A DNA stretch of 32,030 nt from Deltaproteobacteria bacterium RIFCSPHIGHO2_12_FULL_43_9 (GTDB lineage Bacteria; Bdellovibrionota; O2-12-FULL-43-9). This document shows, piece after piece, positions 6,213 through 32,030 of the stretch (positions are counted from its first letter, which is position 1; every line of letters begins with the position of its first letter). A program made the translations under genes and the position numbers. The stretch covers positions 1-32,030 of the forward strand of contig MGRR01000030.1 of the NCBI GenBank assembly GCA_001798265.1, read 5' to 3'. The notes beneath the pieces were generated by a model. It did no database searches. It was not told where the DNA came from and saw only the letters and a program-made list of their open reading frames with translations.

Positions 6213-6214
6213 AT

Positions 6215-8046: not shown

Positions 8047-9522
8047 CTATCCTTCTTGGTTAAATTCTGTTTTTAAGCCCTGGAACCAATACCGGAAATA
8101 GATCATAAGTACTTTTATCCATGTTATTGGATTTTTGGTATTTGCAGTCGGAACAATTTTACGGGACATTACATATGAACTTACAACTGAATATGCTATG
8201 GCATATATTCTTGTCAGACTAAATCTTGCCAGAACTCTCAATAACCGTTCTGGAAAAAATGGAATTATGCAATATAAGGGGCCCAAATAAATCAGTCTCT
8301 GATGAACCTTTTTTTCGTACTCTGGAAAGCAGTTAAACACAGATTTTTCTGAACAGCTCGGAAACCTGTCAAAATCTTTATCAAGATAACCATTTTCTAC
8401 AGCATACTTGGTTATGTCTGTTCCCGCGTATGGTGCACAGATATTAAATACTGGTACAGTCAATTTAACCTTCTTTGCAAAAAGAACGCTTTGAAAATCA
8501 TCCTCAAGTTTCGATCCCGGAACACCTATGATTATTCCACCATATGTGGTTATGTTGTATTTGGCTGCAAGTTCAAAAGATTTCATAATTACCTCATTTG
8601 ATAAATTTCTCTTTAGAACAATGTTCCTGATATCTGGATTCCCAGCTTCGAGGGCCATGCCAATAGATTTACATCCCGCATACGATAAAAGTTGTGCAAC
8701 GTCTTCAGTAAGAACATTAGATCGCATGAGGCAATAAAATGGTAAGCTTATTTCTCTTCTGTACTTTTCAGCAAACTCCTCGAGCCACGGACTTTTATTG
8801 AAAATAAATACATCATCTGCAAACTTTACGAATCTCAATGGTGGGAAATACTTTTTTACATATTTAATTTCTTCTATAAGATTGTCAACTGATCTCCTGC
8901 GATGGATCTTACCTGCTTTCTTAAACATAGTATTGTATGCATGGTTGAAACAATAAGAACATTGGAAAGGACATCCCCGGCCAGCTAAGAATGACCGCAT
9001 TGCAATTTGGCTAAGGGTTGGACGTGCACGATAGAAGAGAGCCCTATCAACAAAAGGTAATGAATCAAGATCATCTACAACTTGCTTCTCAACAGTGGTC
9101 TCTCCTCTGCACATAACATTTGGAATTCCAGAAATGCCATCATTATTTTCAACCCTCTCTAGAATAGTCGTGAAAGCAAGCTCACCCTCTCCGACACAAA
9201 TTGCATCGAGGTCCATTGTATTCAGGACATTCTGGAAATATGTAGGATGAGGCCCCCCCATTATTCTTAAAATATTTTTTCCGGATGATTGAAGATATTC
9301 TTTGACTTCGTTATCATGCTTTATGAACATACGTTCATCAGCACTCATTGTGCTGTATGCGATTAAATCTGGTTGCATTGCTTTCACTGCATCAACAACT
9401 GAATGCAAACCGATTACTGCCATATCGGTTTTATGGCCTCTTTTCCTAGCTATAGCTGAGAGTTGCAAGGTACCCATGGGTTCTTGAAAATAAACGCCAG
9501 ATATAACAAAGAGAATCTTCAT
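8047..9522 (-). CDS. Cobalamin-binding-domain radical SAM enzyme (class B radical SAM)
   Basis: CxxxCxxC cluster motif GCPFQCSYCFN. The N-terminal flavodoxin-like B12-binding region begins MKILFVISG and continues to MGGPHPT...ICVGEGE. The ORF track extends to 9654, but the extra 44 codons precede the conserved beta1 strand, so I prefer Met at 9522. No clear SD sequence. Confidence 0.75.
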   Translation of the reverse strand: MKILFVISGVYFQEPMGTLQLSAIARKRGHKTDMAVIGLHSVVDAVKAMQPDLIAYSTMSADERMFIKHDNEVKEYLQSSGKNILRIMGGPHPTYFQNVLNTMDLDAICVGEGELAFTTILERVENNDGISGIPNVMCRGETTVEKQVVDDLDSLPFVDRALFYRARPTLSQIAMRSFLAGRGCPFQCSYCFNHAYNTMFKKAGKIHRRRSVDNLIEEIKYVKKYFPPLRFVKFADDVFIFNKSPWLEEFAEKYRREISLPFYCLMRSNVLTEDVAQLLSYAGCKSIGMALEAGNPDIRNIVLKRNLSNEVIMKSFELAAKYNITTYGGIIIGVPGSKLEDDFQSVLFAKKVKLTVPVFNICAPYAGTDITKYAVENGYLDKDFDRFPSCSEKSVFNCFPEYEKKVHQRLIYLGPLYCIIPFFPERLLRVLARFSLTRIYAIAYSVVSSYVMSRKIVPTANTKNPITWIKVLMIYFRYWFQGLKTEFNQEG

Positions 9523-10128: not shown

Positions 10129-10133
10129 TTTTC

Positions 10134-10180
10134 TAAATTATTATTTATGTAGAGTTACAGATTTCAGTGTATCTTTCTAG
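10134..10180 (+). pseudogene. Relic copy of the last ~16 codons of gene 6215..8011 (family C 3-prime end)
   Basis: 10134..10161 (taaattattatttatgtagagttacaga) matches 7962..7989 (taaattattatttatatagagttacaga) at 27 of 28 positions. In the same frame it reads NYYLCRVTDFSVSF-stop, against NYYLYRVTDPRVTLY-stop. Similarity decays towards each stop codon. Confidence 0.6.
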
Positions 10181-12144
10181 GGAATAGTGTTGGCGCAATC
10201 ACTGTCCTCTGACAGAGAGATCTCATATATTCTGAAAATGTCACCATCATTATTTACAGATAGAAATTCAATTTTATAATTTTTAAATTTGTCGCTCTTG
10301 GATATCTGGTAAATGCGACGTTCATAATCATTGGGGAGCCAATGTTCATTATCCCTGCTGTCCAGTAGAGTCCAACTACTGCTATTCTTGGAGCCAAGCA
10401 ATCTCCACGATTGTGGCATTCGATAATTAGCCTTATCTTCGCCAGATTCAATCGCGTAGCATTTAATGTGCCTACTTTCATTAAAACTAAAATTCAGTAT
10501 GAGTGGGAATTTTGTGACAAGCTCCCAGAATGTATAGAAGATGTGGTCTAGTGCCCTTTGAAGCCTGAAGGCAGGGTCTGAAGATCCAGAATGTGTTGCT
10601 ATGCCAACCAATTTAACGGTTGGTGCGTCTCGCATCGACATTGGGGGCTTTAGTATGTTCGATTTTTCGTGCAATTCCGGCTCTAAAAAGAATAGATTCT
10701 CCTTCTGTTCCGCAACAAGACTCTCGACGCGTGGATGAGCAATGATTCCAAAATACTTTTTAAGGATGTAGCCAACATGCCCACCGGATAGAATATATAG
10801 TGATTTAAGCTCTCCCCATCTTTGGCGTCCTAAGAGCAATGCCTTCGGGCGCACCTCAACTATAATATAAAACTCCTTGTCGGGTGCGAACTGTGTACGA
10901 ACCTGTTCAACAGCATATTCAAACTGCCTTGAGAGGGTTGTTGCCATGTACATGCTGGTGTTGAATGAAAAGATGCACCCAACAACCAGTAATCCTGCGA
11001 TAAGAAACCTTCTTATTGGAACTATAGAAATAAAATCTATAGATCTAAAGAGTACAAGGAGTATTGCTGCTGCACCAGGATGCCATACTCTATAAATAGA
11101 TGGTGGTTGACCGACAGCGACGAGCGCTGGAACATTCATTGAAAAAAAAATAAGAAACCAGAAGAACAAAAAGAGTACGGAGTCAGCTAATATTAACCTT
11201 AATGTAGACGCTTGATACTTTTTATAGAGACCGAACACAACCGTAATAACCATCAATATTAAAATGATTACTGCAACAACAGACGAAGGAACAGTATTGA
11301 ATAAATTCAACATCATTGGAAGAATGTTGCGAACGAATATCTTTAAATTGATCAGCATCGCTGTTGAAATATCAAACCGATACAATGAGCCATATGGTGG
11401 GTTTACAATATTGAAAAGATTCATTGCAACAAAACGGTGGAGCAGAAAATAAGAAAAGCAGACAATTCCAAAGAAAACAAAAGAGTAAAGTACCTGAGCC
11501 CTTACTTCACGCTTCTTAACACCGCTGTACATTATAGTGACAAGGGCTGGAAGCAGAAAAAAACCTACGGTTGGAGGGTAAATGAAAAGTACAGATAATA
11601 AAATGAGGAAGGATGCCATCAACTTAATTTGTGTTTTGTGTTCCCGGTTACGAAGGGATTTCCAGTCTGGAAAAATTGATATGGCGCAGAGTGTAGGAAT
11701 TATGGCGAATAGACCCGGTATGAAGTTGGCTGTACGGCCGATGTTGATTTGAGCTGTTGGTAGCAAGAATATTGCGGTGCCGAAGGCTGCGCTTGATAGC
11801 TTGCCCATCCCATTTTTTCTTGAAATGATGGAAATATAAATCGCACTTGCTGCGGCAAATGCCATACTGAATGCCCTTCCAAAGGTCAGGCTTCTGAGGT
11901 CGGTAAAGAACCACATGTAGATATTCTGCAAGAACCCCTGGAGAAAACGTCCGAATTGAATCAACACCGCCGTTTCTGTGTGCCCGGAACAGCACGATTT
12001 ATTGTTGTACGCCCAAACCTCAAAATCGTTGTGAAAACCAAAATCAAAGAATAAATAGGGAGAAAAACTTATAAACAACAGCGCCACTATCATGGCGTCG
12101 TAGGGTAAGCTTTCTTTAATAGAATCAAAACGTGAGCGGCGCAT
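10177..12144 (-). CDS. Large polytopic membrane protein, family D (singleton), with a soluble C-terminal region ending in a discoidin (F5/8 type C)-like carbohydrate-binding domain. Possible GT-C-like enzyme.
   Basis: 655-codon ORF with AAGGA 9 nt upstream of the ATG and 13 nt after the upstream stop. N-terminal loop reads FHNDFEVW...GRFLQG, followed by about 10 hydrophobic segments. C-terminus reads YRMPQSWRLLGSKNSSSWTLLD...YKIEF...FRIYEISL, which resembles the R-x-P-x-x-W-x-L-x-G-S-x-D-G-x-x-W pattern of discoidin domains. Confidence 0.55.
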   Translation of the reverse strand: MRRSRFDSIKESLPYDAMIVALLFISFSPYLFFDFGFHNDFEVWAYNNKSCCSGHTETAVLIQFGRFLQGFLQNIYMWFFTDLRSLTFGRAFSMAFAAASAIYISIISRKNGMGKLSSAAFGTAIFLLPTAQINIGRTANFIPGLFAIIPTLCAISIFPDWKSLRNREHKTQIKLMASFLILLSVLFIYPPTVGFFLLPALVTIMYSGVKKREVRAQVLYSFVFFGIVCFSYFLLHRFVAMNLFNIVNPPYGSLYRFDISTAMLINLKIFVRNILPMMLNLFNTVPSSVVAVIILILMVITVVFGLYKKYQASTLRLILADSVLFLFFWFLIFFSMNVPALVAVGQPPSIYRVWHPGAAAILLVLFRSIDFISIVPIRRFLIAGLLVVGCIFSFNTSMYMATTLSRQFEYAVEQVRTQFAPDKEFYIIVEVRPKALLLGRQRWGELKSLYILSGGHVGYILKKYFGIIAHPRVESLVAEQKENLFFLEPELHEKSNILKPPMSMRDAPTVKLVGIATHSGSSDPAFRLQRALDHIFYTFWELVTKFPLILNFSFNESRHIKCYAIESGEDKANYRMPQSWRLLGSKNSSSWTLLDSRDNEHWLPNDYERRIYQISKSDKFKNYKIEFLSVNNDGDIFRIYEISLSEDSDCANTIP

Positions 12145-12157
12145 CTTCTGATCCTTA

Positions 12158-14311
12158 CTATTGCGTTACCGGTCGGTCAACTCTCTTTTCAAGATCATCA
12201 ATGGAATGACCGACTAAGACTCTTTTATCACTGCCCGCTTTAAGGACTGTTTCGTTCAATGGTAGGTTGTCAGGGATTGCAAAGAATTTATCCTGATATC
12301 CGTACAATTGAAAACCTTGATAGGACTTCAGATACCAGGGTTTCCAAAATGTACTGTCTGGCAGGTAATCAGCAGCTGGAGAGACTTTAGGGTCAAGTAC
12401 GGTGTAGGCATAGTAGTCAACGGCAATCTCATTAAGAAAAGGTCTCTTAAATCGATCGTGACCAAAGTAGATGTCATTCTCAAGATCAGAGGTCCCCAAA
12501 AACAACATCTTCTCACGTGGTATAAAATTTCTAATCGGATCAATGAATGGAAATCTGGCAATAACGGAATGTATATGCCCAAGTGGGGCTACACTCACAC
12601 TTTTGCGGGTAATATATTTGTGTGCATGATAATTACCTTTATATGGTATAAATTCCTGCTCCATATTAAGCATGACAATCCGATGGGTTTTCATCTCCCT
12701 GCGGAGGAAATTTTCCAGCTCCATTGGTTTCTCTAATGTTCTCTCCGGTGGGACACCAGCACGAACGCTCCAATATGGTAAGATATGATCATTCGAATAG
12801 TAACGGATATCTTCAGCATGTAATGCGTTTGCAATAACAATTGTACCAGGAGGTGTATTGGTTCGAAACCAGTCAGCCATGTAGTGAATTCCCGAATAAA
12901 GCGATGTAATAGTCACATAGCTTCCGTACACGTTGAGGATTTGATCGAGAAGGCAAAGGATAATAATAGGAAAAAGAACCGCTCTTTTCCATGTTGTACG
13001 GCTTAAAGTGCCAATCCAGAAGTTTTCAGTTGCTGCTACGATGATGATCAGTGCTGGTACAAGTGGATAGACCAGATGAACATGCGCAGAAAATACCTTT
13101 AGGAATGGAAGAAAAGATAATAGAAACCATACAGCCAGAAAACCCAATTGGCGAATCTGAATCTTTTGGTCTTTGAAGTATTTACGAACAATTAAAAATA
13201 AAAGTATTCCACTGCAAACAACAGCAAGGGATATCATCGGTTGCTTCAATCTTAAAAATGCTAGAAGTCCGATTAACACGGGGAGCGCCCTGGCATCCCT
13301 TCTTAGAGAGAAGATAAGGGCTACACCCGACAGAACCCAGAATGTTGGGGGGAGGAGCAGAAGAAATACCCTACCTACGTCCCATTTCGCCTGTGAATAC
13401 AAATTCCAAAGAAATGATTTTATGTCGATAAAAGCCCCCATCTGTGAGCCAAGAGAGCCCAGCTCAAAGACTGGGCTTAGTGGTAACTTAGGCACAATAA
13501 GGTGGGGCAATGCTGTTGGGAAAATGGCATGCAATAAACCGAGCAGAGCCAAGACCAAAACAGGTGTCACACGACGATACCTATACAGTTCCATAAGTAT
13601 TATGAGCATCGTCACGATACCGATAAACTCACGTATCCATGGCCCAAGTAGGAGCACCGATGTTAGACAAATTCCCCAAAGCCAGCGATGTCGCTTAGAT
13701 TCTTCCATCTTCCGGTAAAACCAGAGTCCCATGCAGATAAAAAGTGGGACTAGAACCTGGATGCCTGAAAATATGACCCAGGCGCCTGTTATTACAGCCG
13801 GGGAACAAAAGAATAGTAGTAGGATTACGTATGCCGCCAGGTTTGTCTGGAGATATTCGCGTGCAATAAGGAAGAGAAAGAGTGCCAGCAATCCAAATAA
13901 AGAGGCAATAAAAAGCATCCATATTGTTTTGAGGTACTGCTTCGATTTTCCTGAGATGTGTGCTTCGGTAAACATTGAGACCCCTGTCAGCGCAAGGGCA
14001 GCGCCAAGCGGCCTATAGCCACCAAACTCCAGGCAGGAGAAAGATCTTGTAAGTATTGTTTCTGACAGTTTTGGAGCCCCCCAACGAAGACCATAAGCCC
14101 CCTCATCTCGACAAACCGGTGCGACACCAGGCTTTATCGTATCATCCTTAAAGCCATACGTATTTTCTGCTGTCTGAGGGCTGTCATTCCAGACAAGATC
14201 TTCAGTAGATCTGATTATAAAAAATGTGGTCGTGACCAGACAAAATATCAGTGCGAGGTGTAGATATCTTTTAAATCCATCCGTTGTTACGGATTTTTTA
14301 TATAGAGACAT
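12158..14311 (-). CDS. Large polytopic membrane protein, family C, long form (paralogue of 6215..8011). Putative GT-C-type glycosyltransferase with an extra C-terminal module.
   Basis: 717-codon ORF sharing the blocks listed for 6215..8011. Extra internal TM insert (ALPVLIGLLAFLRL...). Has a ~53-aa C-terminal extension, YQGFQLYGYQDKFFAIPD...SIDDLEKRV, related to the C-termini of family A proteins. Confidence 0.6.
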   Translation of the reverse strand: MSLYKKSVTTDGFKRYLHLALIFCLVTTTFFIIRSTEDLVWNDSPQTAENTYGFKDDTIKPGVAPVCRDEGAYGLRWGAPKLSETILTRSFSCLEFGGYRPLGAALALTGVSMFTEAHISGKSKQYLKTIWMLFIASLFGLLALFLFLIAREYLQTNLAAYVILLLFFCSPAVITGAWVIFSGIQVLVPLFICMGLWFYRKMEESKRHRWLWGICLTSVLLLGPWIREFIGIVTMLIILMELYRYRRVTPVLVLALLGLLHAIFPTALPHLIVPKLPLSPVFELGSLGSQMGAFIDIKSFLWNLYSQAKWDVGRVFLLLLPPTFWVLSGVALIFSLRRDARALPVLIGLLAFLRLKQPMISLAVVCSGILLFLIVRKYFKDQKIQIRQLGFLAVWFLLSFLPFLKVFSAHVHLVYPLVPALIIIVAATENFWIGTLSRTTWKRAVLFPIIILCLLDQILNVYGSYVTITSLYSGIHYMADWFRTNTPPGTIVIANALHAEDIRYYSNDHILPYWSVRAGVPPERTLEKPMELENFLRREMKTHRIVMLNMEQEFIPYKGNYHAHKYITRKSVSVAPLGHIHSVIARFPFIDPIRNFIPREKMLFLGTSDLENDIYFGHDRFKRPFLNEIAVDYYAYTVLDPKVSPAADYLPDSTFWKPWYLKSYQGFQLYGYQDKFFAIPDNLPLNETVLKAGSDKRVLVGHSIDDLEKRVDRPVTQ

Positions 14312-15260
14312 GGTAGTGCTTCCTATACCATTCTATTGTTTTGTCGATTCCATCATCCAATGCAATTTTTGGTTGCCAATCAAAAATAGTGTTTGCTTTT
14401 TCTAAATTAAGACACAATTTTGTTTTTATCGTGGGTTTCGATAAGTCATGATCTATCAGAAGTTGTTTACCGGAATGGAGGATATTTTTTGTTACCAATT
14501 CATTTATGGAGATTGATTTACCATAACCAACATTGCAGATTTCAAACCTGCTCTCCTGTCTGACAATTGCCAGCTCAACAAAGTCAATTAAATCATCGAC
14601 ATATATTAGATCCCGCTCCTCTTCTCCGCTTCCCCATATTATGATTTTATCACCATCATTAGCCTGCATAACCTTGGTAATGGTTGCACCAAAGACATGT
14701 GACTTTTCAAGGTCAAATTTATCGTGTGGGCCGTAAACATTTGAGTGTCTCATTACCGTATATTTCGTATTGCTTATACGGGAATAAAACTCACACATCT
14801 TTTCAATGTAAATCTTGGTCCACCCAACGCCAAAGTAGCTGGGAAATATCTCCAGGCTGGGATCAAAATCTGACTCCTTAATCGGAATATTGCTCGTTGG
14901 GTAAAAGACGGTACAGCTGAAGAAAAGAACGTGCCCAACATTATGTTCAAATGCCGATCTAAAAATTAGCGAGTTCATCACTGCATTGTCAGTGACATGA
15001 ATATAAGGTCGGGTTACAATATCTTTTGAGCCTGTTGTCGTTGCAGCTGCCTGAATAATAATATCCTTATCCTGGACCGCGGCATCGACCTCCTTTTTTG
15101 AGGTTAAATCTGCCTTGATCATTTTTATATTAGGTATTTTTAATGGTTCAGATTTAAAATATGTGCCATAGATTTCAAAATGCACATTCCGAGACAAGGA
15201 TTCAGCTATATTTCGCCCAATAAAACCGGTGCTCCCACAAATCAGTATCTTTTTCTTCAT
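14298..15260 (-). CDS. NAD(P)-dependent extended SDR, GDP-L-fucose-synthase-like sugar-nucleotide epimerase/reductase
   Basis: N-terminal Rossmann motif ILICGSTGFIGRNI. NVYGPHDKFDLEKSHVFGATITKV resembles the Fcl block NLYGPHDNF...SHVIPALL. ATGA overlap with the upstream gene. Confidence 0.7.
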   Translation of the reverse strand: MKKKILICGSTGFIGRNIAESLSRNVHFEIYGTYFKSEPLKIPNIKMIKADLTSKKEVDAAVQDKDIIIQAAATTTGSKDIVTRPYIHVTDNAVMNSLIFRSAFEHNVGHVLFFSCTVFYPTSNIPIKESDFDPSLEIFPSYFGVGWTKIYIEKMCEFYSRISNTKYTVMRHSNVYGPHDKFDLEKSHVFGATITKVMQANDGDKIIIWGSGEEERDLIYVDDLIDFVELAIVRQESRFEICNVGYGKSISINELVTKNILHSGKQLLIDHDLSKPTIKTKLCLNLEKANTIFDWQPKIALDDGIDKTIEWYRKHYHVSI

Positions 15261-16036
15261 CTTAATTCTTTCAAATAGAGATCTATATTTTCTTTTGATG
15301 TTCGCCTGAAGTGCGGCACTAATTCTGCAATCTTTGTGTTGTCTATTAATCCAACACTATAAGTGTGTGTTCCAAAGTTGGGTTTAGCCTGCAAAATTTC
15401 AGCTAAATCGGACAGTCGTATATTCTTGGAGCATGCAGCGTTATAAATCCCATTTAAATCATATTTAATCGAATATTTTATAAATTCCAGTATGTCTGCG
15501 TAGAGTACATAGTTAAATGTTGAATTTTGTGAAAGTGTAAGTGAGCAATTTTTATTTTCTAAAATCTGCATAAAGCTATTTTTTCTCATTTCCCTCCCCA
15601 GCAACGTTGCGGCCCTAATAATAAGATGATTCTTGCAAAATTGAAGTATAATTGATTCTGACATTAACTTGGTAATCCCATAAATCGTACTCAGTGCATC
15701 TACGTCTATAACTTCTGTTTCAAAATGTTTCTCGCTGTTTTTGGGGTATGTTTCTATAGATGATAAATAAATAAACTTTTTATGTGGAATATTGATCAGC
15801 TGTTTGGTTAAAAACACATTATCATTAATATAGTTGTATAAAATTTCAGAATTAACGACCCTGTTTCTGTTGCGTGCACAATGAATTATAATATCGACAC
15901 CACGTGCCTGCAGCTCTTCAATTTCTTCGGGGAGCGTTGCTCTGGTTAAGGAATGCCCGCCTAGTTCTTTATAAATATATTCTCCTATACCGCTAGTTGT
16001 GCCAACGGTAAGGATACTGAGATTTTTCATCATCAT
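15257..16036 (-). CDS. NAD(P)-binding SDR-family protein (short epimerase/reductase-like)
   Basis: GTTSGIGEYIY glycine-rich motif near the N-terminus, and a YGITK (YxxxK) motif. The ORF track starts at 16069. I prefer the ATG at 16036, which forms an ATGA overlap with the stop of 16033..16716. Confidence 0.6.
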   Translation of the reverse strand: MMMKNLSILTVGTTSGIGEYIYKELGGHSLTRATLPEEIEELQARGVDIIIHCARNRNRVVNSEILYNYINDNVFLTKQLINIPHKKFIYLSSIETYPKNSEKHFETEVIDVDALSTIYGITKLMSESIILQFCKNHLIIRAATLLGREMRKNSFMQILENKNCSLTLSQNSTFNYVLYADILEFIKYSIKYDLNGIYNAACSKNIRLSDLAEILQAKPNFGTHTYSVGLIDNTKIAELVPHFRRTSKENIDLYLKELR

Positions 16037-16716
16037 GCCTTGATAAATAGCTCTTTGAAGAGAACCCACAGAAGAGTAGAACCGTTATAGAGCGGTTTCA
16101 TTTTCCGAACACTCCCAACCCTTTTTGGTTCATCACCAGGTATTTCAGTAACCCTTTTTTTATGTCTTGCACATCTTATGCACAATAAGTATTCAAATAT
16201 CGGAATCTTTTTAGAGTCGTTTCTAATTAATTCAATTAGATCTCTCCTGAATGCTCTAAACATAACGAGAGAATCGGTGTATTGCCCACCAAATAATATA
16301 TTTACTGCTTTAGTAAAAATCCAGTTTCCGAAGGCTGTTACAACGTCGTCGTCTTCGCTCCTGGCGCCTGGGAGGTAACGCGAGGCAATAACCATATCGT
16401 TACCCTTTTCCATTTCAGTGATTAAAAGTGGAATGAGCTCCGGTACGGAATTATTATCTGGACTAAACGGGATAATGACATCACCACTGGCTTTCTCAAA
16501 ACATTCCCAATATGCCCCGCAAACACCCTTTGATTTTTGGTGGACTACATTGAAACCCCTTTCTTCAAAGTATTCTATTGTTCCATCTGTTGAGCCGCCG
16601 TCAACAACGATGATTTCATCAACCCATTCCCTATTTATTCTGGGCATTATTAATTTTGCTCCCTCGAGCTCATTATAGGTTGGAATAAAGAGTGTTGTTT
16701 TCATCTGATTACTCAT
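16033..16716 (-). CDS. Family 2 glycosyltransferase, soluble Dpm1-like (possible polyprenyl-phosphate sugar synthase)
   Basis: LFIPTYNE...IIVVDGGSTDGT...VIIPFSPDNN...VIASRY is the classic GT2 (GT-A) N-terminal signature. 227 aa with no TM helix. 8-nt overlap with the upstream radical SAM gene. Confidence 0.75.
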   Translation of the reverse strand: MSNQMKTTLFIPTYNELEGAKLIMPRINREWVDEIIVVDGGSTDGTIEYFEERGFNVVHQKSKGVCGAYWECFEKASGDVIIPFSPDNNSVPELIPLLITEMEKGNDMVIASRYLPGARSEDDDVVTAFGNWIFTKAVNILFGGQYTDSLVMFRAFRRDLIELIRNDSKKIPIFEYLLCIRCARHKKRVTEIPGDEPKRVGSVRKMKPLYNGSTLLWVLFKELFIKA

Positions 16717-18175
16717 CGAGAATGCTGCGACTTAACTTTGTTTTTGCCATTCTTTCGATGTGCTCTCTGGTTTGCAATCCAAATTTCACTTCCATGTCCT
16801 TTAGAAATGCAGGTCTGAGATAATACTTACTAAAAACATCGTCCCTGTACCGCAATACCTCAGCTGATGTCAGATATTTGGTTGGTAGTGCTGTTCCATT
16901 GTAGCCATACAGGGAATAGCCCTCCCAGCTCTTTGGTTCTTCTATTCTCTTTTCATTGATATATTCGTCATATAGAGGTGTGCCTGGATAAGCATAGCCG
17001 GGGTAAACATTTATCCATTCGAAGTTTTCCTGATAGAGGAAATTGCGTGTGGCATTCAGGGTTTCGTAATTGTCATCCCAGAGCCCAAAAATAACATCGG
17101 CACAAATGTAGATTCCGGCGTCGCGTGTCCATTCAAGAACCTTAACCAATGTTTCATAAGTAAATCTTTTAGTAGTGGAATGAAGTACCTTGGGATCAAC
17201 GGTTTCTATTCCGTACGCTATCCAGTTTAGACCGACCTTTTTTAATCTTTCAAGAATTCTTGGTGATACAGTATCGATTCTGGCAAATGCCCACATATTA
17301 AGGGCATAATTTCTTTTTCCCAGTTTATCACAAAATTCATCTAACCGTGGGTGTTTCAAGATAAAGAGCTCATCAAGAATCTTTATGTTTTTTACTCCAT
17401 GTTCATTAACTAGTTTATCAATCTCGGCGATGACATTATCAATTGATCTGAATCTCATTGTTCTTTTTAAAAATACATTATTAATGCTGCAAAAGTTACA
17501 AGGATATGGACAACCAAAGCTTGTCCAAAGAATTGCGTATGGTGATCTATTTTCTATGTCACCGAAGCAATGCCAATTATGCGCACGGTATTTTGACGGT
17601 AAAACGCTATCCCAATTGACGGTCGGAAAATCCTTTAGATCAACAAGCTTAGCCGCCTCATGTTCTGTATATTTACCATCTTTGAAGTAGCAAAGACCCT
17701 TAATGTCAGAGAGGGACTTTACACCTCGATAATGTTCATAAAGTCCGGTAAGTGTTTCATATCCCTCACCCTTGATTACAAAATCAGCCTTGGTCTCGCG
17801 TAGGGTTCTCTCTGGAAGCACCGATGGATGTCCACCCCAAATGACTGTTGTAATCTCCCGTGCTTCAGGATGTTCATAGAACCTATTACAAAAATCGATA
17901 ATGCCAACCATTGTCATAGTAGAGGCGGATGGATTTGCACCAGAGGCAATAAGGCAAACATAAATAGGTTTTTCTTTTAAAATATATTCGATAAGGCTTG
18001 TATTATCGTAGCCATCGGCATCGGCATCAATCATATGTACCGGGATATCATTTTTTTCAAGGTGTGAAGCCAAAACGGCCATTGGAATATTTGGAGCAAT
18101 TGCAGCAAACTCATTGGACGTTACTCCATACAGCTTCTCTTTACAGCTTACGGTTGATATTATGACACTATTCAT
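16709..18175 (-). CDS. Cobalamin-binding-domain radical SAM enzyme (class B radical SAM)
   Basis: GCPYPCNFCS cluster motif preceded by YRAHNWHCF...SPYAILWTS. N-terminal B12-binding-like region (PVHMIDAD...WGGHPS...VIKGEGY). Start moved from 18208 to the ATG at 18175, which has GAGGAA about 8 nt upstream. Confidence 0.75.
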   Translation of the reverse strand: MNSVIISTVSCKEKLYGVTSNEFAAIAPNIPMAVLASHLEKNDIPVHMIDADADGYDNTSLIEYILKEKPIYVCLIASGANPSASTMTMVGIIDFCNRFYEHPEAREITTVIWGGHPSVLPERTLRETKADFVIKGEGYETLTGLYEHYRGVKSLSDIKGLCYFKDGKYTEHEAAKLVDLKDFPTVNWDSVLPSKYRAHNWHCFGDIENRSPYAILWTSFGCPYPCNFCSINNVFLKRTMRFRSIDNVIAEIDKLVNEHGVKNIKILDELFILKHPRLDEFCDKLGKRNYALNMWAFARIDTVSPRILERLKKVGLNWIAYGIETVDPKVLHSTTKRFTYETLVKVLEWTRDAGIYICADVIFGLWDDNYETLNATRNFLYQENFEWINVYPGYAYPGTPLYDEYINEKRIEEPKSWEGYSLYGYNGTALPTKYLTSAEVLRYRDDVFSKYYLRPAFLKDMEVKFGLQTREHIERMAKTKLSRSILDE

Positions 18176-18229
18176 GTTCGGGTTCCTCTTCCCGGCACTC
18201 TTGTGCATTTAACAAAGGGTCGATGCTAT

Positions 18230-18877
18230 TTAATTTAATAAAGATTGTCCATTTTCAATAATATAATTAGCGTATTTTATTGTGTTTTTTATAAAGGGGA
18301 CCTCTTCCTTTTCCCTTTCCGATATAACCCTTTGAATTTTATCTGTATTGAGCCCCTTCTCCTTATAGAAGAGTTCAAGACGCTTTTGTCTTAAATCATC
18401 ATCAATTTTCACATAAATTTTTATTGCTGCTAAATCAAATAGATCTTTGAGTGCCAGCGCTACCACCCCCTCTGCTATTACAACACCAGATTTGATTTCA
18501 AGAGGAGTATTACCCCTCTCAGCTATCCTTTGTCGCGAATGTACGTCATATATCGGTGGATATATTGTGTCTCCTTTGAGCATGCTTCTCAAAGCATCAA
18601 CGATGGAATTACAATTGTAGCGGTCAATAACTCTGGAATCGATCTTTCTTTTTTCAACACTTACAAGCCAGTTATCAAGGCTGATTACCAGATTATTAAT
18701 ACCGTTAACTGAAAATAGATATGATAGCCCACCGGCTATTGAGCTTTTGCCGCTGCGGGAACACCCACCAATAAGTAACAGTGAAGTTTCAGTATCATCA
18801 ATTAATTCGGCTCTTGAAATATGCTTATAAAGTGCTTGAACACCGGAAAAAGTAATCGGTTTATTGTAATACGACAT
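18230..18877 (-). CDS. P-loop kinase of the uridine kinase / phosphoribulokinase family, substrate unknown
   Basis: Walker A motif GGCSRSGKSS, followed by ISLDNW, which resembles the Udk block ISQDSFY. 215 aa. 17-nt overlap with the upstream gene. Confidence 0.55.
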   Translation of the reverse strand: MSYYNKPITFSGVQALYKHISRAELIDDTETSLLLIGGCSRSGKSSIAGGLSYLFSVNGINNLVISLDNWLVSVEKRKIDSRVIDRYNCNSIVDALRSMLKGDTIYPPIYDVHSRQRIAERGNTPLEIKSGVVIAEGVVALALKDLFDLAAIKIYVKIDDDLRQKRLELFYKEKGLNTDKIQRVISEREKEEVPFIKNTIKYANYIIENGQSLLN

Positions 18878-20051
18878 CTTTTACAGCTTTAAGTAGGTTT
18901 AAATCCTTATTCAGAATGATAGTTTTGCAGCCGGCCAGTTCTCCAGCCTCTTGATCTCTTTCATCGTCACCAATTAAATATGTTTTTGATAAATCAAGGC
19001 AAAAATCTTTCTGGGCGTAGAAAAACATCCCTGGTTTTGGTTTTCTGCAGAAGCATCCATCGTCCCAGTTATGTGTGCAGCAATAAATAGCGCCAATTCT
19101 TACGCCAATGTTCAAAAGTTCTTTTGTCATATAGTCGTGAATACTGTCCAAATCTGCATGGGTCATCTTCCCCCTGGCTACGCCTGCCTGGTTAGTAACT
19201 ATAATAATGTTAAAATTGTTTTCTTTTAATAAAAGCAATGCCTCTTTTGCCTCCGGGAGCCAGACAAAATCTTTAACAGATGTGATGTACTCCGCTTTTG
19301 GTGCCTTTTTGTTTAATACACCGTCCCTGTCCAGGAAGATGTTTCTGGTGTTTTTCAAGAAACGCTCTGTTTCTTTAAGTCGTTCGTGTGAACCAACACT
19401 ATAATATCTATGATGTGTCAGATATGAAGTAAGTTTTTTTTCTCCCACGAGTCGTGTATAAACCACCTTTTCGAAATTAATGTTTTCAGCCGGTATCAGT
19501 GAAATAACCTCCTTGTTTAGTATTGCAAAACCGATATCTACACCACTAAGGTTTTCAGAGGTTCTATTTTTATCATATTTTATAACATAATTATTTTGAT
19601 CAAGGATTACATTGCTCTTTGTGTAGTGATCATCATTACTGTAAACTGTAATTTGTGCCAGTGGAGACTGGTTTTGGAATTGTTGCCACATCTTATCAAA
19701 TTGCATGGGCCAGTAGTTGTCGCAGTACATTAATAGAAAACAAGGATCTAACTTCTCTGCTGCAAGTTTCAGTCTCTTTCCGGTTTCGTCTTCAGTCTCT
19801 GAGGTTACATAGTCTATTTTTATTCCAAATGAATCTCCATTTCCAAAATACTCTTTGATTTGCTCTGGTAGGTAACCCAACAATAGTAAAACCTTCTTAA
19901 AACCCTGCTCTTTAAGATGTTCAATCAAGTATTGGAGAAAAGGTTTGCCATGAAAGTGGATCATTGGCTTGGGGATATCATCGGTAATAGGTTTAAGCCT
20001 TTCCCCTCTACCACCAGCCAAAATTACCGCTTGTGTTGGTCTTGCACCCAT
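18861..20051 (-). CDS. hddC-gmhB: Bifunctional D-glycero-alpha-D-manno-heptose-1-phosphate guanylyltransferase (HddC-like) / heptose-1,7-bisphosphate 7-phosphatase (GmhB-like) fusion
   Basis: N-terminal nucleotidyltransferase motif AVILAGGRGERLKPITDDIPKPM. C-terminal HAD phosphatase with FLDRDGVLN, VTNQAG, the GmhB Zn-loop and signature CCTHNWDDGCFCRKPKPGM, and GDDERD. Confidence 0.8.
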   Translation of the reverse strand: MGARPTQAVILAGGRGERLKPITDDIPKPMIHFHGKPFLQYLIEHLKEQGFKKVLLLLGYLPEQIKEYFGNGDSFGIKIDYVTSETEDETGKRLKLAAEKLDPCFLLMYCDNYWPMQFDKMWQQFQNQSPLAQITVYSNDDHYTKSNVILDQNNYVIKYDKNRTSENLSGVDIGFAILNKEVISLIPAENINFEKVVYTRLVGEKKLTSYLTHHRYYSVGSHERLKETERFLKNTRNIFLDRDGVLNKKAPKAEYITSVKDFVWLPEAKEALLLLKENNFNIIIVTNQAGVARGKMTHADLDSIHDYMTKELLNIGVRIGAIYCCTHNWDDGCFCRKPKPGMFFYAQKDFCLDLSKTYLIGDDERDQEAGELAGCKTIILNKDLNLLKAVKDVVLQ

Positions 20052-20130: not shown

Positions 20131-20682
20131 ATGACATCATTTTATCAAGAGTATTTTCAGGAGTTGGACTCAAAAGTGAACAGTGCTAATATCCACGAAT
20201 TGGATAGATGCTGCAACCTTGTGAGTGGCATAGGAAAGAATAATAAGAAAATAATAATCGTTGGTAATGGTGGTAGCGCCACAATTGCCAGTCATGTCTC
20301 TGTCGATTTGACGAAATTGGCTAATATTAGAGCAATTAATTTCAATGAAGCCGATTTAATTACCTGTTTTGCAAACGATTATGGGTATGAGAATTGGGTT
20401 GCCCGTGGATTGGAGGCTTATGCCGACAAGGATGATCTTGTAGTCCTAATTAGTAGTAGTGGAAGGTCTCCAAATATTATCAATGGTGCTTTTAGAGCAA
20501 AGGAATTAGAGCTTAATACAATTACACTTTCAGGTTTTGATATTGATAATCCTTTAAAGAAATTGGGTGATATCAATTTATGGGTTGATAGTAAAATTTA
20601 TAATATCGTTGAATTAACCCATACCGTCTGGTTACTGACTATCATAGATAAGGTGATTCACGATAAAAAAGGTTCGAAATGA
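20131..20682 (+). CDS. gmhA: Sedoheptulose-7-phosphate isomerase (SIS domain phosphoheptose isomerase)
   Basis: IIIVGNGGSATIASHVSVDL matches the GmhA signature GNGGSA..A.H...(D/E)L. VLISSSGRSPN is the SIS motif. 183 aa, typical length. Confidence 0.8.
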   Translation: MTSFYQEYFQELDSKVNSANIHELDRCCNLVSGIGKNNKKIIIVGNGGSATIASHVSVDLTKLANIRAINFNEADLITCFANDYGYENWVARGLEAYADKDDLVVLISSSGRSPNIINGAFRAKELELNTITLSGFDIDNPLKKLGDINLWVDSKIYNIVELTHTVWLLTIIDKVIHDKKGSK

Positions 20683-21668: not shown

Positions 21669-21671
21669 CCA

Positions 21672-22916
21672 ATGAACGGCCCCGGAAAAATCTATAATAC
21701 TATAAATAAGTGCAGAATATGTGGGGCGGATTCCATCGTTGATCTCATAAATTATGGAGAACAGCCTCTTGCAAATTCGCTCAAGAAACATAGAGATGAT
21801 GTAGAACAAAAAATTCCACTTACACTCTCATTTTGTAAGCAATCAAATCATGTCCAGCTTAAAGAGACGGTAAACAAGGAGCTTCTTTTCTCTGACTATA
21901 TCTGGGTAACAGGGACCGCGGCTTCTACGAAAAGATTCGCGAAGGAGTTTGCGCAGAGGGTTATTCAGATTACAAATCTCCAATCCCACGAGCTTGTCAT
22001 TGAAGTGGCCTCGAACGACGGGACATTTCTGGTGCCGTTTAAGGAGCTTGGTTTTTCAAATGTATTAGGTGTTGATCCAGCTGAAAACCTGAAAACTGCT
22101 GCCCTGCAGAACGGTATTGAAACAATCACGGCTTTTTGGAACAAAAATGTCTCTGAAGAGATTATAAAAAAACGTGGCAGAGCAAAAGTAGTAATGGCAC
22201 GAAATGTTTTGCCGCATGTAAGCCAGATTTTTGACGTAGTGGAGGGTATCAGGTGTGCCCTGCAGGATGATGGGGTTGCTATAATCGAATTTCACAATGC
22301 CGGTACTATACTTAATGAGTTGCATTACGATTCAGTTTACCACGAACATCTTTATTATTTTTCAATCAATTCAATTTGTTACCTGTTTGAGAAATATTCT
22401 TTATATCCGTTCCACGCTGATCCAAGTCCCATAAGTGGGGGAGGATACGTTTTATATCTGTCGGCGACAAGGAAGAATAAATCAAAGAGCCTGTTGCAAT
22501 TTATGGAGCAAGAAGAGTCAAACAAAGTAAATTCCCATGAGAGCTGGAATAGGTTTGCCGAAAGATGCGTGGAGCACAAGAGATTATCACGTGAAATAAT
22601 CGATAAATATTATGGGAGAAGGGTTATTGGATTCGGGGCTTCGGCAAGGAGCTCAACATATTTAAATTATTGTGAATTTAATAGTGGGAATATTGAGGCT
22701 GTGATAGATAATAATCCCATGAAGCAGGGGCAATTTACCCCCGGCTCATCAATTCCGATTATTTCTATGGAGGGAGGTTTGCGGAGAAAGCCCGATATTA
22801 TTTTTATTCTCGCATGGAATTTTCGACATGAAATTATAAATCTTTGTCGTTCAAAGGGTTACCGTGGTGACTTCATTGTATCATTTCCATTCGAACCGAA
22901 AGTAATTCAGTCATGA
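21672..22916 (+). CDS. NDP-hexose C-methyltransferase (TylC3/NovU-type; Zn-ribbon + class I SAM MTase + C-methyltransferase C-terminal domain)
   Basis: N-terminal CRICG...L(I)NYGEQPLANS zinc-ribbon/substrate motif. VIEVASNDG in the SAM motif I position. YHEHLYYFS block. About 414 aa, typical of this family. Confidence 0.7.
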   Translation: MNGPGKIYNTINKCRICGADSIVDLINYGEQPLANSLKKHRDDVEQKIPLTLSFCKQSNHVQLKETVNKELLFSDYIWVTGTAASTKRFAKEFAQRVIQITNLQSHELVIEVASNDGTFLVPFKELGFSNVLGVDPAENLKTAALQNGIETITAFWNKNVSEEIIKKRGRAKVVMARNVLPHVSQIFDVVEGIRCALQDDGVAIIEFHNAGTILNELHYDSVYHEHLYYFSINSICYLFEKYSLYPFHADPSPISGGGYVLYLSATRKNKSKSLLQFMEQEESNKVNSHESWNRFAERCVEHKRLSREIIDKYYGRRVIGFGASARSSTYLNYCEFNSGNIEAVIDNNPMKQGQFTPGSSIPIISMEGGLRRKPDIIFILAWNFRHEIINLCRSKGYRGDFIVSFPFEPKVIQS

Positions 22917-24363: not shown

Positions 24364-25364
24364 CAAATAAACAAAAGCTAATTTCCATTGTGTGTCCAAT
24401 CTATAATGAAGAGCATACTATTCCTATTTTCTATAAGAGATTAACTAAGGTAATTGCTTCATTGTCTCATGTGTACAAATTCGAATTAATATTCACCAAT
24501 AATAGATCGACGGACAAAAGCCTCGAACGAATTCTTGAGCTGCGGAATCGGGACACATCAATGCAGGTCATAACGATGTCAAGAAACTTTGGATATCAGG
24601 CATCTGTACAGGCAGGCATAACCCATGCCACTGGTGAAGCAATTGTGATTATAGATGTCGATTGTGAAGATCCACCAGAGATGATCCCTGGATTCCTTGA
24701 GAAGTGGGCCGAGGGTTACGACATAGTATGTGGAATAAGAAAAGACAGACCAGAGGCCTGGATTATGAAGAAATTAAGGGATTGCTTCTATTATCTTCTG
24801 AAGATGACCGCGGATATGGATATTGTTCTTAGAATGGCGGAGTTTGGTTTAATCTCATCAACGGTACGCGATTGCATTGTAAATAATCATAATACATTCC
24901 CATTCTTAAGAGCCGAAATTGGGTACGTAGGATTTTCAAGGTATGAAATTCCATATACAAGGGAGCCAAGAAGTTATGGCAAGTCTGGGTACAATCTATT
25001 GGGGATGGTTATATTTGCAACTGCCGGGCTTTTAACTTCCTCTACGTTTCTATTTAGGTTAGCTGCGTATTTGCTTCCATTTATTGTCTTTACTAATCTT
25101 GTCCTTGTTTTATTGGGACTAATAACGCACTCATTGTCATATTTCCTTGTATTATTTTCCCTAGATCTTCTCTATATTATTTTTTATATGACCGTGCATG
25201 GGGTTTACATTGCCAGAATTTATAAAAATGACATAAGGCGTCCGATTTATATTATTGATCCCAAATTAACATTTCTTAATCAGGAGAATGTCAGACAAAG
25301 TTTTGTCGCCAAGCCTGTACCTAGGCATTTTCAAGAGGCGGGTGAGGTTCATGGAATTCAATGA
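24357..25364 (+). CDS. GtrB/ArnC-like family 2 glycosyltransferase (polyprenyl-phosphate sugar synthase) with two C-terminal TM helices
   Basis: SIVCPIYNEE...SRNFGYQASVQAG...AIVIIDVDCEDPPEMIP...WAEGYDIVCGIR.DR matches the GtrB/ArnC/CsbB pattern. Two hydrophobic helices follow, then the RRPIYII tail. Confidence 0.8.
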   Translation: MVTNKQKLISIVCPIYNEEHTIPIFYKRLTKVIASLSHVYKFELIFTNNRSTDKSLERILELRNRDTSMQVITMSRNFGYQASVQAGITHATGEAIVIIDVDCEDPPEMIPGFLEKWAEGYDIVCGIRKDRPEAWIMKKLRDCFYYLLKMTADMDIVLRMAEFGLISSTVRDCIVNNHNTFPFLRAEIGYVGFSRYEIPYTREPRSYGKSGYNLLGMVIFATAGLLTSSTFLFRLAAYLLPFIVFTNLVLVLLGLITHSLSYFLVLFSLDLLYIIFYMTVHGVYIARIYKNDIRRPIYIIDPKLTFLNQENVRQSFVAKPVPRHFQEAGEVHGIQ

Positions 25365-26244
25365 AGTAAATTGCCCCGTCTGTGAAAAAAATGATTATAA
25401 GGTTGTATATCCCGGTACCCTTGGAAAGAATGCCCCGGTATTCGGGTATAAATGGACACCAGAAATACGGAAAATATATCGCCTGGTCCAGTGTAAAAAC
25501 TGCTCGCATGCTTATGCATCACCACGATTGAGTGATATTTATAAATATTATGAAGATGTTAAAGATGAAACCTATTTGAATAATGCAGGTTTAAGAAAAA
25601 AAACGGCAAGAAAGGTTTTGACCACGATCAAAAAGTTCAAGCCTGACGGCAAATTACTTGATGTAGGCTGTTCAACTGGAGATTTTTTGGAGGTTGCGAA
25701 GGAAGATTATGAATCAGAAGGCATGGAGCTTTCAGAATGGGCGTTAAAAATTGCCCGCGAGAAACAACTTTTGGTGTATAAGGAGACTCTGCGGGATAGG
25801 GCTGCGGCATGTAGGGCCTCGTATGATGTGGTGACGATGTGGGGTGTTATTGAGCATCTGGAATATCCCAAATTAGAGATCCAGCGCATTAATAGCCTGT
25901 TAAAGGAGGGTGGTATTGTCGCTCTCTGGACCGGAGATTTTAACTCAATCTTTTCTAAAATTTTCAGACAGAAGTGGTGGTATATTCTAGGACAGCATAT
26001 CCAGTTTTTTAGTTGGAAATCGATGGATTATTTAATGGAAGAGGCTGGATTCCAGAGGGTTCATAAAGGTATTTATCCATACGTAATATCATTTGAGTAC
26101 CTCGGTGTTTCTCTTTCTAGATATTCAATTGTCGGCCCTCTTGTCAGGAATTTTTTTAAATTATATGGTCTTGCGGCGCAAGAATTTACATTAAAAAAAT
26201 CTGACGAGATGTTTGCAATTTATAAAAAGGTTAGGAACAACTAG
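25351..26244 (+). CDS. Class I SAM-dependent methyltransferase with an N-terminal Cys4 zinc-ribbon
   Basis: CPVCEK...CKNCSHAY ribbon and LLDVGCSTGDFLE (SAM motif I). Start moved from 25288 to the ATG at 25351, which has GGTGAGG 5 nt upstream and reduces the overlap with the GT2 gene to 14 nt. Confidence 0.7.
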   Translation: MEFNEVNCPVCEKNDYKVVYPGTLGKNAPVFGYKWTPEIRKIYRLVQCKNCSHAYASPRLSDIYKYYEDVKDETYLNNAGLRKKTARKVLTTIKKFKPDGKLLDVGCSTGDFLEVAKEDYESEGMELSEWALKIAREKQLLVYKETLRDRAAACRASYDVVTMWGVIEHLEYPKLEIQRINSLLKEGGIVALWTGDFNSIFSKIFRQKWWYILGQHIQFFSWKSMDYLMEEAGFQRVHKGIYPYVISFEYLGVSLSRYSIVGPLVRNFFKLYGLAAQEFTLKKSDEMFAIYKKVRNN

Positions 26245-26257
26245 CAGATTGGTAATC

Positions 26258-31520: not shown

Positions 31521-31535
31521 ACTGGTTTTGCAGAT

Positions 31536-32030
31536 ATGATTATTTCAAAAACCCCATTAAGAATAAGCTTTGCCGGAGGTGGCACTGATTTCCCATCGTT
31601 TTATAAAAACAATGATTTTGGAGCCGTAATCAGTACTTGCGTAGATTCTTTCCTCTACGTCTCAGTAAAAAGGCATTCTCCATTATTTGATGAAAGAATA
31701 AGGCTGAATTATTCAGAAACGGAACTGGTACATGATATAGATAAAATAGAAAATTCGATTATCAGGGAGTCCCTGAAGTTTTTGGGCATTGACGATAGAA
31801 TATATATATCTACAGTCTCCGATGCTCCGGCAAAGTCGGGACTTGGTTCCTCCAGCACATTCTGCGTCGGTCTTTTAAATGCTTTGTACAAATTTAAGGG
31901 GATGAATGTATCAGCGGGCAGACTGGCGGAAGAGGCTGCACATATAGAAATAGGCATTCTTGGAAGACCCATGGGAAAGCAGGACCAATATGCTGCAGCA
32001 TTTGGTGGTTTAAACTACTTTGAATTCTAT
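31536..32030 (+). CDS. hddA: GHMP-family sugar kinase, D-glycero-alpha-D-manno-heptose 7-phosphate kinase-like (HddA). 3-prime end lies outside the window.
   Basis: Absent from the ORF track because no stop is reached. ATG at 31536 opens a frame of 165 codons running to the window edge: MIISKTPLRISFAGGGTDFPSFY...SDAPAKSGLGSSSTFCVGLLNAL...GKQDQYAAAFGG. It has the GHMP motif II (P-x-x-SGLGSSS) and the N-terminal RISF.GGGTD block typical of the HddA/fucokinase clade. Confidence 0.75.
   Translation, partial: MIISKTPLRISFAGGGTDFPSFYKNNDFGAVISTCVDSFLYVSVKRHSPLFDERIRLNYSETELVHDIDKIENSIIRESLKFLGIDDRIYISTVSDAPAKSGLGSSSTFCVGLLNALYKFKGMNVSAGRLAEEAAHIEIGILGRPMGKQDQYAAAFGGLNYFEFY

Follow-up and report, generated by a model that had tools for sequence, protein, structure and literature searches.

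A B12-Domain Radical SAM Enzyme in a Recurrent Gene Module for a Putative Lipid-Linked Modified Heptose

AprD4 (PDB 6fd2), the radical S-adenosylmethionine (SAM) 1,2-diol dehydratase of the pathway to the antibiotic apramycin, acts on a sugar, and its keto product is reduced by an NAD(P)H reductase partner, AprD3 (PMC5461906); AprD4 itself binds no cobalamin (PMC12931638). HpnJ, a radical SAM enzyme of the B12-domain type from the hopanoid context, is paired with the glycosyltransferase HpnI. Deletion of hpnJ abolishes the ring-contracted cyclitol ether, and HpnJ is hypothesized to act without methylation, contracting the ring of a lipid-linked glucosamine installed by the glycosyltransferase (PMC13459092). 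OxsB (PDB 5ul2-4) is a cobalamin radical SAM enzyme of 744 amino acids with an extra N-terminal domain, which carries out a ring contraction on a nucleotide substrate and needs OxsA, while the C-methyltransferases GenK, GenD1, and Fom3 have a two-domain architecture and act on sugars or small polar molecules. Two further systems, ArnC/ArnD/ArnT and DprE1/DprE2/AftA, share a logic in which a polyprenyl-phosphate sugar is made by a family 2 glycosyltransferase (GT2) or an equivalent, is sometimes modified at the lipid stage, and is used by a GT-C enzyme. Here we analyze a B12-domain radical SAM gene, rSAM1, in a 32,030-nucleotide stretch of DNA (the window) from Deltaproteobacteria bacterium RIFCSPHIGHO2_12_FULL_43_9 (assembly GCA_001798265.1, contig MGRR01000030.1, positions 1 to 32,030), in which it lies among genes for heptose activation and sugar tailoring. 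Neither the enzymes listed in a 2026 review of the class (PMC12931638) nor our literature searches gave an example of a B12-domain radical SAM enzyme that works on a heptose or on a glycan of the cell surface.

There is good support for rSAM1 as the radical enzyme in a compact gene module, recurring across loci, whose products build a modified heptose and supply it in the form of a lipid-linked donor. In the proposed pathway, GmhA, HddA, and a GmhB-HddC fusion would produce guanosine diphosphate (GDP)-D-glycero-alpha-D-manno-heptose, rSAM1 and two short-chain dehydrogenases/reductases (SDRs) would tailor the sugar, a Dpm1/ArnC-like GT2 would put it on polyprenyl phosphate, and GT-C-like membrane proteins (of 717 and 655 amino acids, with their paralogs) would pass it to an acceptor beyond the cytoplasmic membrane. 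Our preferred reading joins this donor module to a non-methylating rSAM1 reaction, and as a whole we give it a probability of about 0.42.

The gene is found on the minus strand within an open reading frame (ORF) that the ORF listing gives as 16709..18208, with 499 codons and an upstream ATG at 18208. The start at 18175 (Met12) is probably the correct one, because a Shine-Dalgarno-like stretch, GGGAAGAGGAA, precedes it and because the resulting protein of 488 amino acids (16709..18175) has the length of nearly all homologs. That the gene is real is far beyond chance, as the search returned >3000 homologs and an AlphaFold2 (AF2) model built from 79 of them reached a predicted local distance difference test (pLDDT) score of 93.9. 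The stop codon TAA (16709..16711) overlaps the start of the GT2 gene, with its ATG at 16716, by 8 nucleotides (ATGAGTAA), and two SDR genes come next, as a preliminary description of the locus had stated. A second ATG at 16704, 4 nucleotides past the rSAM1 stop, may be the true GT2 start, since the homolog in locus L006 starts with MKTTL; the two genes are tightly coupled whichever start is used. Elsewhere in the operon the ORF coordinates give overlaps of 17 nucleotides between the HddC-GmhB fusion and a kinase gene, of 4 nucleotides between the two SDR genes (SDR270 and SDR320), and of 14 nucleotides between SDR320 and the gene for the 717-amino-acid membrane protein; the GT2 and SDR270 genes overlap as well. 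A promoter and terminator scan of the operon performed no better than on shuffled sequence and was not used.

The translation and Pfam agree with the earlier assignment of rSAM1 as a B12-domain (class B type) radical SAM enzyme. The B12-binding family (PF02310), which defines the N-terminal domain of class B, scores 41.6 bits against a gathering cut-off of 32.1, and Radical_SAM (PF04055) scores 65.8 bits against 29.5 on a core that has the CX3CX2C motif of that class. PF02310 and an N-domain profile place a Rossmann domain of the cobalamin-binding type at 17744..18112, and within it lies the loop SGANPSAST (17918..17944). The motif GCPYPCNFCS (17486..17515) supplies C222, C226, and C229 for the radical SAM [4Fe-4S] cluster, and the family signature YRAHNWHCF (17564..17590) sits in the linker directly ahead of the first strand of the radical SAM barrel. 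Across 79 homologs with at least 47% identity, H199, W201, and H202 of the signature and the three cluster cysteines are invariant, as are G79, N81, P82, S85, and T86 of the loop and G114/H116/P117 elsewhere in the Rossmann domain. A set of 80 genome loci had been retrieved through peptide patterns that included HNWHCFGD, so that this family is defined by the motif; its conservation in these loci is therefore not independent and was discarded as evidence.

A second rSAM1 subfamily, far larger, is about 36 to 39% identical to the window protein. At least 8,000 candidates were scored, all of them members, and the subfamily is highly conserved, with the best 120 at least 70% identical to the query; the family spans many phyla. 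An example of the subfamily is the gene at 9953-11455 of locus L027, with its relatives P0151-P0270. H199, W201, and H202 are retained, together with most other invariant residues, and N200 is present in at least 90% of these sequences. The subfamily has GHQPSAST in place of GANPSAST, that is, His-Gln for Ala-Asn, and carries an 11-residue insert after the cysteine motif. Residue N81, invariant in the close subfamily, is thus Gln in the distant one. Database annotations of rSAM1 homologs are generic or wrong, such as "BchE cyclase" and "YgiQ."

We scanned all genes of the window with Pfam and NCBIfam, and none of its radical SAM enzymes, rSAM1 included, reached the cut-off of a curated family. 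The top profile for rSAM1 was HpnJ (TIGR03471; residues 117-475) with 127.3 bits against a cut-off of 577.6, followed by BchE (TIGR02026; 109.1 against 481) and by TIGR04295 (108 against 400), a hypothetical equivalog of B12-domain radical SAM enzymes that is itself uncharacterized. Then came the Sden_1168 P-methylase (about 102 against 575), MgmA (89 against 360), PhpK (80 against 600), HpnR (64 against 650), AprD4 (NF033070; 55.7 against 500), and KedN5 (43 against 700), with weak matches also to ApyD and to a ladderane-lipid enzyme. Membership in the HpnJ, BchE, AprD4, or methylase families was rejected on these scores, which lie below the threshold of every proven methylase family in the comparison (PhpK, HpnR, KedN5, Sden_1168, and MgmA). 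The preliminary description had held that a place in a clade with an established non-glycan role, together with homologs lying apart from glycan genes, would speak against a function in glycan synthesis, and no such place emerged, as HpnJ, BchE, HpnR, PhpK, and AprD4 all remain far below their cut-offs. No hpn genes occur in the window or related loci, and no bch genes nearby. The hopanoid context of HpnJ also differs from the heptose-derived sugar and polyprenyl-phosphate/GT-C setting of rSAM1.

By sequence, the solved structure that matches best is AprD4, which scores 82 bits with the family profile and aligns over the radical SAM core only (residues 209-414), followed by MgmA (9ccb, identified as MgmA in PMC11796369) and OxsB. 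Foldseek ranks the matches to the AF2 model in the order AprD4 (template modeling [TM] score, 0.72 to 0.78), TsrM, OxsB, MgmA, CysS, and TokK. As modeled, the fold is that of the B12-domain radical SAM group, yet the protein falls into no known family. In PDB, a profile restricted to the N-terminal domain found solely the cobalamin domain of OxsB (E = 1.7e-5) and MgmA, and not the N-terminal domain of AprD4. An AprD4-like, cobalamin-free enzyme was down-weighted on this result, and by homology the rSAM1 domain probably binds cobalamin, although AprD4 is an example of such a fold that does without it (PMC12931638). OxsB aligns with rSAM1 over both domains (residues 29-383), at an identity of about 17%. 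Radical methylases have a hydrophobic residue beneath the cobalamin (Trp76 in TokK and Leu322 in Mmp10), whereas the lower axial environment is hydrophilic in TsrM (Arg69) and OxsB (water/Asn186) (PMC12931638). Both OxsB alignments, which are remote hidden Markov model (HMM) alignments to this one protein, place Asn81 of rSAM1 on Asn186 of OxsB, a hint that the lower face of the cobalamin might have an OxsB-like environment.

The sugar that the module would start from can be read from its neighbors, as the full pathway to GDP-D-glycero-alpha-D-manno-heptose is predicted to be encoded at the window. The first gene of the minus-strand operon (18861..20051) encodes a fusion of HddC, a heptose-1-phosphate nucleotidyltransferase, with GmhB, a heptose-1,7-bisphosphate phosphatase. 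Divergent to it on the plus strand is the gene for a GmhA-like SIS isomerase (20131..20682). At the far end of the window lies the 5' part of a plus-strand gene for an HddA-type GHMP kinase, a heptose-7-phosphate kinase (31527..32030); it is cut by the window end, and in locus L089 the gene is complete, with 330 amino acids. A P-loop kinase resembling phosphoribulokinase (PRK) and uridine kinase is encoded between the HddC-GmhB fusion and rSAM1 on the minus strand (18230..18877), and it has no counterpart in 85 related loci.

Downstream of rSAM1, likewise on the minus strand, the small soluble GT2 (16033..16716; Pfam Glycos_transf_2) has 227 amino acids and no membrane segment. Its best PDB matches are the Pyrococcus dolichol-phosphate mannose synthase (5mlz; 57.8 bits) and ArnC (34 bits), and its NCBIfam matches, AglJ (93 bits) and dolichyl-phosphate hexose transferase (66 bits), are both below their equivalog cut-offs. 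By this similarity it is classed as a polyprenyl-phosphate sugar synthase, and from homology polyprenyl phosphate would be its acceptor. The following gene (15257..16069) encodes a short extended SDR (about 255 to 270 amino acids in the family) with GxxxGxG and YxxxK motifs, weakly RmlD-like in profile searches and conserved beside close homologs. The product of the next (14298..15260) is an extended SDR similar to GDP-fucose synthase and to GDP-mannose 3,5-epimerase (GME), with 140 bits to NCBIfam Fcl, below the cut-off, and PDB matches to Pal, GDP-fucose synthases, and GME.

The 717-amino-acid polytopic membrane protein (12158..14311, minus strand) has no Pfam match, and its family comprises only 30 clusters in 5.8 billion proteins. 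Its AF2 model (pLDDT 81) matches with Foldseek at E < 0.02 only GT-C enzymes (STT3/PglB, DPY19, AftA, and PMT), with low TM scores of 0.35 to 0.39, and a nearly invariant Asp43 follows the first transmembrane helix. On this modeling, it is probably a GT-C-type glycosyltransferase that uses a lipid-linked sugar. The next minus-strand gene (10177..12144) encodes a 655-amino-acid membrane protein with a C-terminal discoidin-like domain; homologs lie beside the module in loci L003, L004, and L006. Altogether the window has seven polytopic membrane proteins of 586 to 733 amino acids (in 100-8011, 10177-14311, and 27175-28941) with no Pfam match, all with an Asp shortly past the first transmembrane helix. 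Three pairs of paralogs (586/588, 697/733, and 598/717) and one singleton make up this set, and four more such proteins are encoded further along the same contig (L088 13330-21452). The module thus resembles the Arn and Dpr systems in that its GT2 matches ArnC and dolichol-phosphate mannose synthase and its membrane-protein model matches AftA, PglB, and DPY19. Unlike them, it has no ArnD or DprE1 homolog, a radical SAM enzyme and SDRs take the tailoring position, and the sugar is heptose derived.

We compared the gene neighborhoods of close loci (at least 45% identity, n = 13, with at least 6 kb of flank on both sides) and of all well-flanked loci (n = 57); large membrane proteins were counted by crude hydrophobicity, since BLAST and HMM detection of their families is poor. 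The close homologs belong to Deltaproteobacteria, Omnitrophota, Planctomycetes, and Magnetofaba (Magnetofaba australis, for one), and their loci keep rSAM1, the Fcl-like SDR, the short SDR, the small GT2, and a large polytopic membrane protein contiguous, in permuted order. Of the 13 close loci, 12 have the Fcl-like SDR and 9 the small GT2 no more than 3 kb from the radical SAM gene, 11 have a large membrane protein no more than 5 kb from it, and 12 have at least one further B12-domain radical SAM gene. In Omnitrophota and Planctomycetes the clusters (L005, L008-L014) are extended by a split transketolase/E1 pair, and upstream of it they open with a radical SAM gene paired with a B12-domain radical SAM gene. 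Distant homologs typically close an operon with the order SDR, HddC, GmhB, GmhA, (NUDIX), HddA, SDR, E1-alpha, E1-beta, DegT, rSAM, and such an operon, with heptose genes, E1-alpha/beta, and DegT, also occurs in the cultured cyanobacterium Floridaenema fluviatile (BLCC-F154). A GT2 is nearby in 27 of 44 distant-homolog loci. The two cluster architectures are linked by locus L087, in which the heptose/E1/DegT/rSAM cluster is joined to a small GT2, a methyltransferase, and a homolog of the 717-amino-acid protein. Over the whole family a heptose gene lies within 10 kb of the radical SAM gene in 43 of 57 loci and an E1/transketolase-like pair near it in 49, so that homologs co-occur with sugar-nucleotide and glycan genes and the role in a glycan locus given in the preliminary description is supported. 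E1/transketolase and DegT partners are absent from the window and from the next 10 kb of the contig downstream.

One 48%-identical homolog, P0119, lies on a 110-kb contig (JGI 3300075153) that is phage-like, with ribonucleotide reductase, dCMP deaminase, and a radical SAM gene containing LAGLIDADG. It adjoins an SDR, a DegT aminotransferase, a split E1/transketolase, and a GT2, and it may be a viral copy of the sugar-tailoring module.

For the reaction itself we propose that rSAM1 would cleave SAM at the CX3CX2C cluster and then abstract a hydrogen from a C-H bond of the sugar, with no methyl transfer. An elimination, oxidation, or rearrangement would follow and leave a carbonyl, with the cobalamin-type domain assisting, perhaps in the role of electron sink that has been proposed for OxsB, and the partner SDRs would reduce or epimerize this carbonyl to give a deoxy, epimerized, or ring-rearranged heptose. 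An Fcl-like SDR normally needs a keto-sugar from a 4,6-dehydratase. The minus-strand operon has such an SDR and no 4,6-dehydratase to supply the keto substrate, which argues for a reaction of rSAM1 that leaves a carbonyl. We lean toward non-methylating chemistry, and put it slightly short of even odds, because the nearest profiles and structures (HpnJ, BchE, AprD4, and OxsB) are non-methylases, because the residue aligned with the lower axial position is polar (Asn81, or Gln in the distant subfamily), and because the SDR partners are conserved. The pairing of AprD4 with the reductase AprD3 (PMC5461906) and the ring contraction of lipid-linked glucosamine ascribed to HpnJ (PMC13459092) point the same way. 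Of the two alternatives that the preliminary description had offered, these weak indicators slightly favor non-methylating chemistry on a nucleotide- or lipid-linked sugar and slightly disfavor its emphasis on methylation. As to the stage of action, the GDP-sugar is somewhat the more probable substrate, since nucleotide-sugar enzymes accompany both rSAM1 (the partner SDR) and its distant homologs; action at the polyprenyl-phosphate level is the lesser, still sizable, possibility.

Several points weigh against this preferred reading. SDRs are common in any sugar locus, so that their proximity is weak evidence, and multiple B12-domain radical SAM genes per cluster are typical of methylation-rich pathways. 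The profiles of the P-methylase and MgmA score just slightly below those of HpnJ and BchE, and the ranking carries little information, since every score falls far short of its family cut-off. A single HMM alignment and a handful of structures underlie the lower-axial argument, low TM scores underlie the GT-C assignment, and the 80 genome loci were ascertained on the HNWHCFGD motif. Neither cobalamin genes nor a cobalamin riboswitch, nor any other Rfam family, were found in the window. Finally, most characterized B12-domain radical SAM enzymes are methyltransferases (PMC12931638).

The strongest alternative is that rSAM1 is a methylcobalamin-dependent C-methyltransferase like GenK, GenD1, and Fom3, acting on an unactivated heptose carbon at the GDP- or lipid-linked stage, with the SDRs serving unrelated steps of epimerization or reduction. 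This is a tentative but serious possibility. The dominance of methyltransferases in the class speaks for it, as do a B12-binding domain above the Pfam cut-off, strongly conserved Rossmann loops, and an N-terminal domain homologous to those of true cobalamin binders (OxsB and MgmA), unlike the degenerate domain of AprD4. The Sden_1168, MgmA, and PhpK profiles also match, 12 of the 13 close loci have at least two B12-domain radical SAM genes, and the E1/thiamine pyrophosphate pair of the distant loci could install a two-carbon branch, a natural target for a chain-extending methylation. However, no methylase family cut-off is approached. No curated model was matched for the GenK/GenD1/Fom3 type, with which rSAM1 shares the two-domain architecture, and the related PhpK, HpnR, and KedN5 score 43 to 80 bits against cut-offs of 600 to 700. 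The aligned lower axial residue is a polar Asn or Gln rather than a hydrophobic one (PMC12931638), and the nearest profiles and structures are non-methylases. For methyl decoration, moreover, a classical C-methyltransferase and two further methyltransferases are already encoded at the locus.

Less likely is a narrower form of the preferred reading, in which rSAM1 would contract or rearrange the ring of a polyprenyl-phosphate-linked heptose after the GT2 step, giving a carbocyclic or furanose-type donor whose carbonyl the SDRs would reduce. Precedents are HpnJ on hopanoid-linked glucosamine, calditol synthase on a lipid-linked hexose, and OxsB on deoxyadenosine phosphate. Among the curated profiles HpnJ, hypothesized to act on a lipid-linked sugar (PMC13459092), scores highest, over residues 117-475. 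The overlap of the rSAM1 stop with the GT2 start speaks for this form, as does the contiguity of rSAM, GT2, SDR, and GT-C-like genes in close homologs. The OxsB-like Asn is present, and the fold matches of the 717-amino-acid protein include AftA, which is the GT-C partner of DprE1/DprE2. Against these stands the distance of HpnJ from its cut-off (127 bits against 577). The Fcl/GME-like type of SDR normally binds GDP-sugars, distant homologs end nucleotide-sugar operons (DegT, E1, and SDR) with a GT2 nearby in just 27 of 44, and the lipid-linked substrate is a candidate by inference. That rSAM1 instead modifies the polyprenyl carrier, a lipid, or a protein or peptide acceptor, being merely co-located with glycan genes, is very improbable: many B12-domain radical SAM enzymes do act on peptides or lipids and weak matches to ApyD, the ladderane-lipid enzyme, and MgmA exist, but in many phyla and in several architectures of the cluster the gene is consistently linked to genes for heptose nucleotides and sugar tailoring, AprD4 as the nearest of the solved structures binds a sugar, and no precursor-peptide-like gene was noticed beside rSAM1, although no specific search was made.

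rSAM1 stands for a new, widespread family within a known class of enzymes. Its biological setting is new as well, and there is an obvious candidate for its substrate. This candidate, GDP-D-glycero-alpha-D-manno-heptose, is simple and testable, and its pathway is encoded alongside rSAM1. Depending on the reaction, rSAM1 would either bring radical C-methylation to bacterial glycans or represent a new kind of non-methylating cobalamin/radical SAM chemistry on a sugar. The loci also expose unannotated GT-C-like membrane proteins and a polyprenyl-phosphate-heptose route, with a bearing on the envelope biology of poorly known phyla. In the most far-reaching version, which we regard as a long shot, the HxWH family would carry out a cobalamin-using, non-methylating ring contraction or carbocycle formation on heptose attached to polyprenyl phosphate, supplying the donor for the GT-C group, with at least 11 paralogs on the contig. 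If true, this would be a previously unknown lipid-linked donor for building a periplasmic or surface glycan and a radical, oxygen-independent analog of the DprE1/DprE2/arabinosyltransferase system, widespread in Omnitrophota, Planctomycetes, Deltaproteobacteria, and others. Literature searches on radical SAM enzymes with polyprenyl and GT-C, on heptose with cobalamin, and on GDP-heptose with transketolase returned nothing relevant.

Pfam matches recover the three B12-domain radical SAM genes, the C-methyltransferase, and the two Zn-ribbon methyltransferases listed for the window in the preliminary description, and a fourth radical SAM gene is added here, as are the link to heptose genes, the polyprenyl-phosphate type of the GT2, and the many membrane proteins of GT-C-like character. 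The second B12-domain enzyme, of another family (8047..9522, minus strand), is probably encoded by the last gene of the minus-strand operon. The third (30069..31520, plus strand) directly follows the added gene (29033..30049, plus strand), which has neither a B12 nor a SPASM domain and has viperin and MoaA as weak best matches. This pair has the same domain make-up as the pair that opens the Omnitrophota and Planctomycetes clusters, at 24 to 33% identity, and orthology is unproven. The three B12-domain enzymes of the window are 22 to 25% identical to one another, and the HxWH block is absent from all but rSAM1; recent paralogy was rejected on both counts, and by sequence they represent three distinct families, with no paralogous expansion. 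As none of the three belongs to a proven methylase family, the heavy methylation capacity that had been read from their number is unproven.

The plus-strand operon at 20131-25364 encodes the GmhA-like isomerase, a GDP-mannose-4,6-dehydratase-like enzyme, a TylC3-type C-methyltransferase (21672..22916; Methyltransf_13/14), an RmlC-like epimerase, and an SDR. Next in this operon is a GT2 of 335 amino acids, the C-terminal third of which (about residues 215-290) is strongly hydrophobic. The operon resembles a second route to a lipid-linked donor, in this case of a 6-deoxy-3-C-methyl (virenose-like) heptose. The two Zn-ribbon methyltransferases are encoded at 25288..26244 and 26213..27178. On the plus strand, antisense between the gene for the 655-amino-acid protein and the second B12-domain radical SAM gene, an ORF of 132 amino acids (9730-10128) has no Pfam match and may be spurious. 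Within the gene for the 733-amino-acid membrane protein, a nest of short direct and inverted repeats, such as CGTCATTGCGAG and CTCGCAATGACG, occupies 1690-1894. An insert rich in Arg and Pro (GLPRND ... GPPRND) and a locally raised GC content are found at the same place, and a small palindromic repeat element may have inserted there in frame.

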